Shown one piece after another: positions 4,317 to 63,823 of a DNA stretch of 64,000 bases (the first letter of the stretch is position 1; the number at the start of each line of letters is the position of its first letter). Source of the stretch: Enterobacteria phage T6; sequence record MH550421, one strand, 5' to 3'. The notes under the pieces were generated by a model. The model saw only the letters and a list, made by a program, of their open reading frames with translations. It had not been told where the DNA came from and did not search any database. The translations under genes and the position numbers were made by a program.

Positions 4317-4338
4317 AAAGGCCCGAAGGCCTTTTATT
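4317..4338 (-). terminator. hairpin terminator (GC stem, tetraloop)
   Basis: aaaggcc-cgaa-ggccttt palindrome right after stop of lipoprotein ORF. Confidence 0.6.
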
Positions 4339-4603
4339 TAAAACGAATAGTCGAATCCTTGAAGAATAGACTAGAACACACTGTTCCTTCTACTTTCTGC
4401 CCGGTAGGTCCAATAGCACGAAATCCAGTATGCTGGAAATCATTTTCAGAGCAACCGAACCAATTATATCCAGTGATTTCAATATTAGTAAAACCGCTTG
4501 AAGACAAAACTTTGGTTGCGTTATCAGCATCAGTACATCCTACTAAAGACACTGCTAATACTAATGCTGCGATAGAACGATTAATATATTTCATAATTTT
4601 CAC
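4334..4603 (-). CDS. predicted lipoprotein, 89 aa
   Basis: N-terminal signal with lipobox LVGC. Confidence 0.5.
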   Translation of the reverse strand: MKIMKYINRSIAALVLAVSLVGCTDADNATKVLSSSGFTNIEITGYNWFGCSENDFQHTGFRAIGPTGQKVEGTVCSSLFFKDSTIRFK

Positions 4604-4971
4604 TTAAATTTAATGGCTTGAAGGAGACTAATAACTCTCAAGCGACTTCTTTCATCTTTAACTGTAAAAGAAAGAGGGTCACCAGATTTCATAGTGATAG
4701 TGCATTCAAAATCAAAATCTTCTGTAACTTCTTCGAAGAAGTCAAATTCTTCGTCATAAATTAGAACATTACTCTGATGACTGTGAAGAATTTTTCCGTC
4801 ATTTCCAGATGCTGTACTAATCATTGTAACATTATGACCTTTCATATCTTCAACGATAAATTCGCTTGTAGATATTACATTACTAATAGAACCATTCCTA
4901 TAAATAGCAGAAAATAGATATTTCTTTTCTTCACCTTCGCGAATGCGATATTTCTTACCAATTTTAAACAT
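4600..4971 (-). CDS. hypothetical protein, 123 aa
   Basis: ORF in operon context; start overlaps next gene stop. Confidence 0.45.
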   Translation of the reverse strand: MFKIGKKYRIREGEEKKYLFSAIYRNGSISNVISTSEFIVEDMKGHNVTMISTASGNDGKILHSHQSNVLIYDEEFDFFEEVTEDFDFECTITMKSGDPLSFTVKDERSRLRVISLLQAIKFK

Positions 4972-5152
4972 AATTACCCTTTAAGTAAGTCGTAAAATCC
5001 ACCATTCACATGCTTAGGAGCGGAAACTAACCGAATAGCAATCCGATGACAATCAGGACATACATCAGTATCCCTTTCAGAAATTTTCTTGATTTTTTCA
5101 TATTCTTTTGCGCAGTCTTTGGATTGACATTTATAATCATAAAGCGGCATAA

Positions 5153-5566
5153 TTATTCCTTAAAGTGAGCTTTCAACATCTGATACAAAGACCATGCCTG
5201 TTCATTATTTTCAATAGTAACTTTCATGATCGGGAATTCAGATGGTTCAGTTACTGGTGCAGGGTCTTCCTGCTCTTCAGCAGCCTGATATGGATTTTCC
5301 ACTTCATTAAAGAACTCGGCTTCGTTGCTAGAAAGCCAGATAAAGTTTTCGTCAATGACTGTACCTCGTGATGAATATCCAACTATGCCAGTAGATGTCA
5401 CAATTTTAGTAGGACGCCCGTAATAGTCAACATCTAAAATTTTAAAAGGTTCCATACCTAAACGCCGCGCATAGATTCCGTTATCAGTATGGTCTTTAAT
5501 AAAAGATTCTTGAGCTTGTTTATTTTTGAATTGATACCATTTATTAACTTCAAATTTAATAGCCAT
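5153..5566 (-). CDS. hypothetical acidic protein, 137 aa (goF position)
   Basis: ORF at the position between gene 39 and motB; identity not verifiable. Confidence 0.45.
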
Positions 5567-5784
5567 TAATAAATTTCCTTCCAGTAAGTTGTGCCATCTT
5601 CAGTAATTTCACGAAATACACCGTAAATTGGCTGTTTATCACCGACTTTCTCATACACATAAACCGAAGTCAAGTGAGTAAACTTGATGGTGTGTTCCTT
5701 TTGAACTACTACCAAATCTGGATCGAATAATACATCTTCAAATTCATCATTAGTGCAATTCTGAACAATTTTACGTTTCATCAT
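5566..5784 (-). CDS. hypothetical protein, 72 aa (cef position)
   Basis: small ORF whose stop overlaps the start of the next gene. Confidence 0.4.
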
Positions 5785-5880
5785 AATTTCCTCATTAATT
5801 GAACATTGGAGCGATGCGTTTCAGAAGAGTATCAGCACCTTTAACGAATTATCCATTTTATTCTTCAAGTTGTTTTCTGT

Positions 5881-5923
5881 ATCAGTAGTTGATATTGATA
5901 TAGTACCATAATCAACTACTGAT
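5881..5923. repeat. 13-bp perfect inverted repeat flanking a promoter-like -10 element
   Basis: atcagtagttgat ... atcaactactgat separated by 17 nt that contain rc TACTAT. Confidence 0.6.
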
Positions 5924-5953
5924 GTATATAGTTTTATGAAAAAATTTTAAACT

Positions 5954-61524: not shown

Positions 61525-61545
61525 TATTTATAGAAGGTATTTATA
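61525..61545 (-). promoter_or_regulatory. tandem late promoter motifs TATAAATA upstream of e
   Basis: two rc TATAAATA copies (61525-61532, 61538-61545) 14-34 nt upstream of e ATG. Confidence 0.6.
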
Positions 61546-61548
61546 AAA

Positions 61549-62004
61549 TTAAAAGAGGTTGTTCATTATTCGGTAAAGTGAAGGACCCATCACATATTGC
61601 CACTGAGTACGAGGAATAAGAGCAAAAGCGTCCATCTCTGGAATCATAACGCCATCTTTATTTTCAAAATAAGACTCGCAGCGGCAATTTCTAAACATCT
61701 CATGCTCTACTGGAATCGTATAATAAAATAACTGTAAGTCTTTATTACTAGAATATTTAAATACACCTAGGTCTTCTAGAAGGTCTGGATTATAATTGCT
61801 AAAACCGGTCTCTTCTAAGCATTCTCTTTTTGCAGCTTCCAGTGCATTCAAATCAGAACTTTCTACACGCCCCTTTGGAATATCCCAGCGATGTGCCATC
61901 ATTCCAGGCTTACGAGAAGCAGTAACCCGACCCATAAATAAATCTTTATCTTCTGTCATAAAGATAATACCAGCTGATAATGTTTTCATTTTAATTTCCT
62001 GCAT
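61549..62004 (-). CDS. nudE: Nudix hydrolase NudE
   Basis: 151 aa; Nudix box ...[12 protein letters not shown]... Confidence 0.85.
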
Positions 62005-62474
62005 TCAGTGATAAAGTTATTTAAATTTTGAGCATATTTCTTTTCATCAAAAATCTTTTGCTGTCTGCGTAACCGCCATGGCATTTCAATGAACATGCGC
62101 CATATTTCTGATAATACTGCTGCTGTAAAAATATTAACAAGTATGGTTAAAAGAACCCAATCTCCTATTCTGTCCATTGGATTTTTAATAAAAAAGTAAA
62201 ATACGAACGATGATATAGGAAGACTAATGATATACCACAGAATAAGCTTCTTATCTGTGAACCAATCAGCATTCGTTAACTTAGCGCGACCATTTTGAAT
62301 ACACACGAATTTATCATCTGTTACAGTAAATGGCTTAGCTGCTTGATATCCCATTCTAAACTCCCTAATTAATCGTTTCTTTGTATCTTCGGAACAACCA
62401 TTCCAGTCAACTCTATCAACTGAAATGCCATCATCCCCATCATCTAAATCATACCAACGAGTTTTTAAAATCAT
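61986..62474 (-). CDS. membrane protein, 162 aa
   Basis: two central TM helices. Confidence 0.5.
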   Translation of the reverse strand: MILKTRWYDLDDGDDGISVDRVDWNGCSEDTKKRLIREFRMGYQAAKPFTVTDDKFVCIQNGRAKLTNADWFTDKKLILWYIISLPISSFVFYFFIKNPMDRIGDWVLLTILVNIFTAAVLSEIWRMFIEMPWRLRRQQKIFDEKKYAQNLNNFITECRKLK

Positions 62475-62833
62475 TTAATTTTCCTACAATCGCTCACAAA
62501 CTCTTTCATTGATTCATTTTCAATATAAGACATGTAGCTATTATATTCTTTTAATTGTATTTTGTAATCCTTTTTTCTTTGCCAATTTATTTTAAAATTA
62601 TCATAATGAAAATATAACATAGTACCAAAGAATGAAAACAATGAAATAATTTTAGTATAACGAAGTTCACTCCAAACCTCTGTTATATCTACTGTACCAC
62701 TGATTTTTAAAATAAAACAGTCAATTAATAGTCCAATAAGACTACCTATAAGAGCTGCAGCCAACGCCACGGACACAATTAAAAATGACTCAGAAAACGA
62801 ATATTTGACTTTATTTAGTTTTGGCTTTTGCAT
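62471..62833 (-). CDS. membrane protein, 120 aa
   Basis: two TM helices. Confidence 0.5.
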   Translation of the reverse strand: MQKPKLNKVKYSFSESFLIVSVALAAALIGSLIGLLIDCFILKISGTVDITEVWSELRYTKIISLFSFFGTMLYFHYDNFKINWQRKKDYKIQLKEYNSYMSYIENESMKEFVSDCRKIK

Positions 62834-63228
62834 CGTGATTCCTTAACAAATTTCATAATTTCATTAAATTCATACATATCTAGTTTAAGCTGGTATTCCT
62901 TTTTAATCTTTTTGCACTGGGCTTTCCAATCACGTACGCGTTTACGATAATGTCTTCCTTGATACCAGTATCCTACCCAATTTACAGGTACTAATAAAAG
63001 CGGAACTACCAATGGAAGAATTAGTGTTGCTCCAAATATTACACCAGATTCAATATCAGTCATAACGTCTATAACCATTCCAGCAATCAGCAGAATCACA
63101 AATGATACAGCTACCACAGGACCTATTAACACATCAGTAGAAATTATCTGACGCTTTAATTCATACTTCAACGGTTTACTTGGAAGGTATAGTGATGGTT
63201 TTGACATATTCTCTACATTCCTTAACAA
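62815..63228 (-). CDS. membrane protein, 137 aa
   Basis: two TM helices. Confidence 0.5.
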   Translation of the reverse strand: MLRNVENMSKPSLYLPSKPLKYELKRQIISTDVLIGPVVAVSFVILLIAGMVIDVMTDIESGVIFGATLILPLVVPLLLVPVNWVGYWYQGRHYRKRVRDWKAQCKKIKKEYQLKLDMYEFNEIMKFVKESRCKSQN

Positions 63229-63784
63229 ATTTTTCTAATAATAAATCGCTTTCAAAATTGGGATTTTCTACGAATTTATCAAAAAGATCATCAACAATAG
63301 TTAAGATATTCTTTTTACTAAGAATACGTTTATTTTCATGCTTCGTTTCAGAATCAACTATAAGAGTAAAGAAATATTTCTTGCCCTGAAATTTTACCGT
63401 AGTATCAATATAAAATAAATTTGACTTTTGTAAATTACGTTTAAACCATGCGTCACTTAAACTATAAACGCCGAGATAATCATAATCGTCGTTTAAATAA
63501 CAAACTGTCCATTCAGGAGAAATGAAATCAGTAAATTCAACATCAAAATCGCATGTCAATGAATGAATTGATTCAATACTGTTAATAAGTATTCCAGGAC
63601 GTATTAAAGACTTTTTACCTCTAGAAAATCTTCCAGAAAGACTTTCATCAGTTTCATATGAAGAACCCCAATAATAATTACGTCCTTCTGCCATACGTTT
63701 AAGAGCATTTAATAATTGGTCTGGAACATCAACTTGTCTTTGGAATTCTTCAAACATTGAATTAAAATCACTTTGCATTTTCAT
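63176..63784 (-). CDS. hypothetical protein, 202 aa
   Basis: ORF. Confidence 0.5.
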   Translation of the reverse strand: MKMQSDFNSMFEEFQRQVDVPDQLLNALKRMAEGRNYYWGSSYETDESLSGRFSRGKKSLIRPGILINSIESIHSLTCDFDVEFTDFISPEWTVCYLNDDYDYLGVYSLSDAWFKRNLQKSNLFYIDTTVKFQGKKYFFTLIVDSETKHENKRILSKKNILTIVDDLFDKFVENPNFESDLLLEKFVKECREYVKTITIPSK

Positions 63785-63801
63785 TCCTATTTACTCCAAG
63801 T

Positions 63802-63823
63802 AATAGGGGCCGAAGCCCCTTAT
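63802..63823 (-). terminator. hairpin terminator
   Basis: aggggc-cgaa-gcccct right after the stop of the partial ORF. Confidence 0.6.

Follow-up and report, generated by a model that had tools for sequence, protein, structure and literature searches.

The 64,000-nt stretch of Enterobacteria phage T6 DNA considered here (record MH550421; hereafter the window, with positions counted from its first letter) carries thirteen short, GC-rich hairpins, which we interpret as C(UUCG)G RNA hairpins of T4-type phages that act on RNA and form two evolutionarily stable classes, a reading to which we assign a probability of about 0.8. The five hairpins of class A, in which the stem runs directly into a run of U, are, judging from their sequence, most likely ordinary intrinsic terminators for the host RNA polymerase. 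The remaining hairpins, class B, are probably read-through RNA structures whose role would be the protection of mRNA 3' ends. The feature exists and is strongly non-random, yet it is already known, CUUCGG hairpins having been described in 1988 and terminator/promoter cassettes in 2010 and 2014. It carries little weight as a discovery, and the useful outcome is a correction of annotation: the label of terminator should be given to no more than about five of the thirteen hairpins, and four adjoin middle, not early, promoters.

A 6-kb piece of the window is a 100% match to the phage T6 records AP018814.1 and NC_054907.1 and matches about 500 T-even genomes at 95–99%; the window as a whole corresponds to bases ~1–64000 of T6 (Tequatrovirus), with a few small indels. 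It spans the early and middle region rIIA-39-...-43-45-...-nrdC-tk-e, in which essentially all genes lie on the minus strand and open reading frames (ORFs) cover about 94% of this strand. Gene names are taken from the T6 record and from the curated T4 record AF158101, in which no promoter or terminator features are annotated, and a scan of the whole window with Rfam at gathering thresholds found no family.

A preliminary description of this DNA had listed twelve near-identical hairpins with stems of 4–7 bp and four-nt loops, mostly UUCG, placed after stop codons. A perfect hairpin is indeed present on the minus-sense RNA at 12/12 of these places, and, counted from the end of the upstream stop codon, the starts of all twelve fall in the range -4 to +12 nt (for 63805, this distance was checked by hand). 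Regarding the loops, ten of the twelve are C(UUCG)G and one is C(UCCG)G (24661), but the UCU loop of 39314–39328 has 3 nt; as for the stems, those of the ten UUCG hairpins are longer than had been described, measuring 6–9 bp when only perfect pairing is counted. A thirteenth UUCG hairpin, absent from the initial list, is found inside gene 40 (20821–20840, 8-bp stem). There are thus eleven UUCG and one UCCG tetraloops (UNCG) on the minus-sense RNA, and in 12/12 of these hairpins the loop is closed by a C-G pair on a perfect Watson-Crick stem of 6–9 bp. The free-energy check suggested in the description was run and gave minimum free energies (MFE, in kcal/mol throughout) of -10.7 to -17.6 and z-scores of -1.4 to -4.2, all 13 hairpins being GC-rich stem-loops within this MFE range.

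A chance origin of the UUCG hairpins is excluded. Indeed, with a stem of at least 5 bp and at least 3 GC pairs, 11 perfect UUCG hairpins are counted in the minus sense of the window and none in the plus sense, against 0.03 on average, and never more than 2, in 100 dinucleotide-preserving shuffles. The hairpins do not form one uniform set, "near-identical" being applicable only within two repeat families (74–100% identity), and each class has its own family. Family D4, without a U-run, has six copies of a 22-nt unit (TAAAGGGCCGAAGCCCTTTATT-like) with 77–100% identity, the copies at 29392 and 34972 being identical over 22 nt, and family D12 has three copies of a 27-nt unit with 74–81% identity (14934, 52620 and 56629), which contains an A-run, that is, a U-run on the RNA.

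Other sequences of related appearance were encountered in the window. The plus strand contains 15 copies of CTTCGG (CCGAAG in the mRNA sense) versus about 6 expected from shuffles, with no copy in a hairpin, and codon usage (e.g., xCC-GAA-Gxx) is the probable cause of this excess. Strong hairpins with loops other than UUCG include one in the region of the modB start and early promoter, with a 14-bp stem and a loop of 7 nt (12778–12812), a 10-bp hairpin, AUGAGACUCU-UUAA-AGAGUCUCAU, within the a-gt.2-like ORF (36348–36371) and two located in coding sequence, whose GC-rich stems of 7 bp carry GAAG and GAUG loops (44536–44553 and 40385–40402).

The hairpins are cleanly divided into two classes by their U-tail score, 38351 being intermediate. 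Five of them, whose scores reach at least the 98th percentile for the window, constitute class A:

14944–14965, minus strand: soc terminator-like hairpin, 9-bp UUCG stem, then UUUUCAUUU; MFE -15.2, z -3.9; U-tail at the 99.5th percentile
24661–24678, minus strand: gene 43 terminator-like hairpin, AGGGACC-UCCG-GGUCCCU, then UUUUCAU; MFE -13.9; 98.8th percentile
39314–39328, minus strand: nrdH terminator-like hairpin, GGGCCC-UCU-GGGCCC, then UUCUUUCU; MFE -17.6; 98.4th percentile
52631–52650, minus strand: nrdC.11 terminator-like hairpin, AGGGAGCC-UUCG-GGCUCCCU, then UUUUUUAUUU; MFE -17.5; 100th percentile
56641–56658, minus strand: rI.-1 terminator-like hairpin, AGUCUCC-UUCG-GGAGACU, then UUUUUCAUUUU; 100th percentile; of family D12, like 14944

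Like the intrinsic (Rho-independent) terminators of Escherichia coli RNA polymerase, these five combine a GC-rich hairpin with an immediate U-run, and 14944 is the only hairpin in the first 20 kb of the window that passes a terminator scan. Moreover, at the soc junction the hairpin and its U-run are kept in 13/13 distinct sequences, each of which has five or more U immediately past the stem, and this with Soc proteins that are only 47–100% identical. As far as its sequence indicates, class A agrees with the way in which Hinton (2010) defines intrinsic terminators and class B does not.

In class B, the U content after the stem is at background level in seven hairpins (4317, 20821, 27446, 29391, 34972, 36242 and 63805) and borderline, at the 96th percentile, in 38351:

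4317–4334, minus strand: hairpin after the 39.1-like ORF, AAAGGCC-UUCG-GGCCUUU; overlaps the stop codon; no U-tract; MFE -10.7; tail at the 44th percentile
20821–20840, minus strand: gene 40 internal hairpin, UCCCCCUC-UUCG-GAGGGGGA; codons 16–22; 37 nt after the uvsX stop codon; MFE -16.7
27446–27463, minus strand: regA/43 hairpin, AAGGGGC-UUCG-GCCCCUU; no U-tract
29391–29412, minus strand: 45/44 hairpin, AUAAAGGGC-UUCG-GCCCUUUAU; overlaps the gene 45 stop codon; no U-tract; MFE -13.1, z -4.2
34972–34991, minus strand: a-gt/47 hairpin, UAAAGGGC-UUCG-GCCCUUUA; contains the a-gt stop codon; no U-tract
36242–36261, minus strand: a-gt.2-like/a-gt hairpin, AUAGGAGC-UUCG-GCUCCUAU; overlaps the stop codon; MFE -16.1
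38351–38366, minus strand: 55.3-like/55.2 hairpin, AAGGGC-UUCG-GCCCUU, then UUUGGAUAAU, a borderline U-tract
63805–63820, minus strand: e.6/e.5 hairpin, AGGGGC-UUCG-GCCCCU; followed by the e.5 ribosome-binding site, with neither U-tract nor promoter

These eight differ from intrinsic terminators and are not classifiable among them by sequence, so that the proposal that all the hairpins are terminators is retained for the five with a U-run, does not extend to the seven without one and is borderline for 38351. No U-run was found at the orthologous regA/43 and 45/44 junctions in 11 distinct lineages each. Class B hairpins overlap the upstream stop codon in six cases out of eight, 27446 and 63805 starting 2 and 5 nt past it, respectively.

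On the minus strand, a GGAG is found 4–15 nt past four of the hairpins without a U-run, at 4298–4301, 27438–27441, 34959–34962 and in the 63807–63810 region, in the contexts ..ccGGAGtataat, ..tttGGAGtataat, ..tacGGAGtttga and ..cttGGAGtaaat. GGAG is the core of the site of the RNase RegB, whose published consensus is GGAGRAYARAA, and cleavage there would thus leave the hairpin at the new 3' end. The flanks of the four GGAGs agree only partly with this consensus.

The orientation of the loop points to a function in RNA. Eight further UUCG hairpins are present elsewhere in the T6 genome, and 8/8 read UUCG in the local gene sense, including three that lie, like the block of genes around each of them, on the plus strand (96357, after gene 18; 103020, after gene 23; 111390, just upstream of uvsW.1). 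With the 11/11 of the window, the loop is UUCG on the coding sense in 19/19 T6 hairpins; loop sense follows gene direction, which favors a function at the level of the transcript over one in duplex DNA. A palindrome or cruciform functioning at the DNA level, which was considered as a candidate, is ruled out by this constant tracking.

Conservation leads to the structure of the hairpins. T4 has hairpins at the orthologous sites, and RB69, which belongs to a different genus, has compensated UUCG stems at the 39.x/39, soc/mrh.2, regA/43 and a-gt.2/47 junctions and inside gene 40, as well as a GAAA-loop hairpin at the 45/44 junction and a different stem at the orthologue of 36242. Covariation was examined at loci retrieved from IMG/VR with RegA, gp45, gp40 and Soc as queries. 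At regA/43, 11 distinct hairpins have seven stem pairs that are 100% paired, 6/7 of them changed on both sides, and at 45/44, 11 distinct hairpins are 96% paired, also with 6/7 pairs changed on both sides, these percentages being obtained partly by construction because the best hairpin was picked per junction. The covariation score of regA/43 was reached by 0/500 shuffles, and its loops are UUCG (seven), UACG, GAAA, UUAC and UCCG. Independently of the picking, a hairpin with a different stem is found at the same junction in every lineage that keeps the junction. In relatives, it is the hairpin structure rather than the sequence that appears to be conserved. Inside gene 40, the hairpin is kept down to 56% gp40 identity, and the RB69-type version carries CCC>CCU (Pro) and GAG>GAA (Glu), two changes that are both synonymous and compensatory. 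Among the variants observed, the gene 40 hairpin has one UUUG loop and several UCAG loops, and the T4 copy of the 45/44 hairpin (T4 about 31880–31915) has GCC versus GCCC in the 3' arm of T6, resulting in a bulged G and not in a perfect 9-bp stem.

It had also been proposed that the hairpins are frequently followed immediately by an early promoter, forming terminator-promoter junctions. With the consensus TTTACW-N17-TAYWAT, as given for the promoter-early stem-loop cassettes (PeSLs) of PST/T4, perfect matches follow 14944, 52631 and 56641 (15, 31 and 16 nt, respectively) and, more loosely, matches follow 24661 (88 nt) and 39314 (81 nt), but not the other eight hairpins:

14900–14928, minus strand: early-promoter consensus TTTACT-17-TATAAT, 15 nt after the soc hairpin and upstream of mrh.2
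24544–24572, minus strand: early-promoter consensus TTTACA-17-TACTAT, 88 nt after the gene 43 hairpin and upstream of imm.1; repeat families D1, D2 and D6
39204–39232, minus strand: early-promoter consensus TTTACA-17-TATTAT, 81 nt after the nrdH hairpin; repeat families D2 and D8
52571–52599, minus strand: early-promoter consensus TTTACA-17-TACTAT, 31 nt after the 52631 hairpin and upstream of nrdC.10
56596–56624, minus strand: early-promoter consensus TTTACT-17-TACTAT, 16 nt after the 56641 hairpin and upstream of mobD.5

Putative terminator/early-promoter junctions are hence limited to three (to five) sites, four hairpins having middle promoters instead and the rest having none. Moreover, 32 of the 37 early-promoter-like sites of the minus strand (at most one mismatch) are without such a hairpin upstream, so that hairpin-promoter pairing is the exception. 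No usable promoter was found after 29391, 38351, 63805 and 20821. As a promoter for gene 44 after the 45/44 hairpin, the only match, TTTACA-18-AATTAT, was rejected: its -10 element lies over the gene 44 start codon, transcription would begin inside gene 44 and the match can therefore not serve this gene.

Some of the early-promoter sites are part of repeats. The segments 24503–24553 and 52530–52580 share 98% identity over 51 nt; each starts at the -10 element, covers the 5' untranslated region and ends in the first codons of the gene, imm.1 or nrdC.10, and both belong to an early-promoter cassette family of ~70 nt also found at 50402, 55751 and 56563. The T6 record labels the copy at record positions 24507–24546 "attL", which looks like a prophage-finder artifact caused by this cassette repeat.

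Regarding 4317, 27446, 34972 and 36242, these hairpins adjoin orthologues of the T4 MotA-dependent middle promoters P39, P43, P47 and PmobB, not early promoters. The T4 start sites are located at 5349, 29933, 36576 and 38682, respectively (Hinton, 2010, Table 1), that is, 19–33 nt past the orthologous T4 hairpins (5381–5398, 29952–29969, 36607–36626 and 38715–38734). The corresponding elements of the window are:

4292–4319, minus strand: P39 orthologue, MotA-box-like TTTAGCTTTA, 12 nt, TATAAT; the box begins in the 3' arm of the hairpin and the T4 sequence is the same
27432–27437, minus strand: -10 element (TATAAT) of the P43 orthologue; its -35/MotA-box region lies entirely inside the regA/43 hairpin
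34948–34975, minus strand: P47 orthologue, TTTAGCTTTA, 12 nt, TATAAT
36216–36241, minus strand: PmobB (Palpha-gt.1) orthologue, ATTGCTTTA, 11 nt, TAAAAT

At 4317, 34972 and 36242, one reads in order the stop codon UAA, the 5' arm, UUCG, the 3' arm ending in UUU, (A/U)GCUUUA, 11–12 nt and TATAAT or TAAAAT. Stop codon, hairpin and MotA box are interleaved at these three sites, and at the four hairpins with a middle promoter, stop, hairpin and promoter are all contained within about 50 nt. The (A/T)GCTTTA box, its spacing of 11–12 nt and the TATAAT/TAAAAT element are the same as in the T4 middle promoters, the MotA box being present 12 ± 1 bp upstream of the -10 element; P43, which follows 27446, is without a canonical box, and related phages also have GGAGTATAAT, or a sequence very similar to it, after their regA/43 hairpin. 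The middle promoters known from T4 are neighbors of the hairpins and distinct from the hairpins themselves. For P43, the GCTT formed by the loop-closing G-C and UU (within 27432–27463) was considered as a MotA box and fits -31 to -28 when counted from the tabulated start site. It was rejected as a firm assignment, being 15 bp from TATAAT versus 12 ± 1, i.e., 2 bp off the canonical register, and not conserved, related phages carrying ACTT or AGTT at this position.

Taken as terminators, class A hairpins would isolate early or late units (soc, 43, nrdH, nrdC.11 and rI.-1) from the next early promoter and, combined with this promoter (within 15–31 nt in three cases and within about 85 nt in two), would represent the terminator/promoter cassettes published as PeSLs. 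For class B, transcription would read through at least some of the hairpins. Indeed, the list of middle promoters (Hinton, 2010, Table 1) contains none for genes 44, 62, regA, 40 and 41, from which we infer that the 45/44 and gene 40 hairpins are read through. Being located within read-through units, these two cannot mark operon ends, so that this role, attributed to all the hairpins in the preliminary description, is plausible only for class A. Class B hairpins would be at most weak attenuators of transcription and would act post-transcriptionally, as very stable caps halting 3'-to-5' exonucleases after read-through and cleavage and hence setting the 3' ends and the relative stability of the upstream mRNA segments. 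This proposed role of decay barrier is the one known for intercistronic stabilizer hairpins, such as the REP elements of E. coli operons, which are thought to block 3' exonucleases and to prolong the life of the upstream segment. Class B hairpins are similar to REP elements as stable stem-loops without a U-tract in polycistronic RNA, but they are much shorter and unrelated in sequence.

Several points weigh against this two-class interpretation, in addition to the picking of the best hairpin per junction. Hairpins with a poor U-tract can still terminate partially, and class B may thus include weak attenuators; in gene 40, the encoded peptide (S/T)PS(S/Q)EGE is conserved as well, which confounds the conservation of the hairpin; and a literature search retrieved no T4 or T6 transcript 3'-end data set. 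A different view is that the hairpins without a U-run are not weak terminators but a functionally distinct conserved class that couples the 3'-end stability of the upstream mRNA to translation. A terminating or translating ribosome would melt the hairpin, which could then fold only on untranslated or already cleaved RNA. This class usually overlaps the stop codon, includes the gene 40 hairpin and forms family D4, and four of its hairpins share sequence with a MotA-dependent promoter; we nevertheless consider such a coupling unlikely.

The reverse explanation, in which all the hairpins are intrinsic terminators ending operons and those without a U-run are merely weaker or dependent on a factor such as NusA, benefits from the fact that every hairpin is stable, GC-rich and just past a stop codon, that strong termination was observed with the PeSL stem-loop of RB49 in a lacZ reporter (PMC2839356) and that the tails of 38351 and 36242 are moderately U-rich. 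It appears quite unlikely in view of the seven hairpins with only background U content after the stem, and of the conservation of this absence in 11 lineages at each of two junctions, while the soc U-run is kept in 13/13 sequences. It is also at odds with the read-through deduced from the lack of a listed middle promoter downstream of the 45/44 and gene 40 hairpins, and with the six hairpins overlapping a stop codon, whose 5' arm would lie under the terminating ribosome. Should class B be mainly translational, its hairpins would insulate the downstream ribosome-binding site from upstream structure or block re-initiation or coupling between neighboring genes. Several translation initiation regions of T4 make use of RNA structure (PMC3014915), and the 45/44, e.6/e.5 and 55.3/55.2 hairpins do separate a stop codon from the ribosome-binding site that follows. 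However, hairpin and start codon are 15 to 58 nt apart, depending on the site, and at 4317, 27446, 34972 and 36242 the downstream gene's own transcript begins past the hairpin, which is thus absent from the mRNA of that gene, making this explanation very unlikely.

Least probable of all, in our opinion, is that the hairpins act on DNA as linker sequences (PeSLs) for the recombinational swapping of gene modules, with secondary hairpin and promoter roles. Such a function has been proposed in the literature for T4-like phages, among them the PST/T4 pair (PMC4122927; PMC2839356), hairpins and promoter cassettes form repeat families in the window, and the T4 mobB insertion is located about 35–60 nt from the 36242 hairpin. 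A DNA linker would require no particular loop sense, whereas UUCG tracks gene direction in 19/19 hairpins and flips with the strand. Recombination breakpoints between T6 and T4 are, moreover, not enriched at the hairpins in the alignment: in this small sample from a single genome pair, only 1 of ~30 (the mobB site) falls within 100 nt of a hairpin versus roughly 1.2 by chance, and most breakpoints involve homing-endonuclease genes. Finally, the stems diverge freely between lineages, which erodes the homology needed for recombination. The reading of two classes of RNA hairpins, probable terminators and read-through structures, is preferred.

The elements described here largely correspond to known systems. 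According to the summary given in PMC8948821, CUUCGG hairpins of the form (X)2-8CUUCGG(Y)2-8 are mostly intergenic and especially abundant in T4 phages (Tuerk, 1988, PNAS 85:1364), where their functions are varied and include mRNA stabilization. The T6 set shares with the C(UUCG)G hairpins of T4 the motif, the phage group and the mainly intergenic location, the T4 copies are orthologous and there is no essential difference between them. The decay-barrier proposal for class B is in line with the non-terminator roles listed for the T4 hairpins, and the T4 gene 32 leader hairpin is cited in the same source (PMC8948821) as a stabilizer comparable to the role proposed here. The bypass hairpin of T4 gene 60 (T4 2837–2854, GAUAGCC-UUCG-GGCUAUC) has no counterpart in T6 because gene 39 is unsplit in this phage (window 2447–4267).

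Regarding PeSLs, a reporter assay demonstrated termination by their stem-loops in RB49 (Arbiol, 2010, PMC2839356), and those of PST, which is 98% identical to the window, have been analyzed (Comeau, 2014, PMC4122927). Their arrangement of stem-loop, early promoter, Shine-Dalgarno sequence and start codon between small ORFs is matched at 14944, 52631 and 56641, loosely at 24661 and 39314 (81–88 nt) and not at the other eight hairpins. The T6 hairpins also differ from PeSL cassettes in that most are without an early promoter, most early-promoter-like sites are without a hairpin and there is no excess of breakpoints.

Finally, the comparison of records revealed small differences. An intact ORF of 181 aa, the size of T4 vs.1, is present at 59941–60486, where NC_054907.1 annotates only a 76-aa coding sequence and where its numbering becomes offset from that of the window by 1 nt, indicating that the window differs from this record by a frameshifting indel. 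Further indels between the window and NC_054907.1, of 3 nt, are located near 7000 and 22950.

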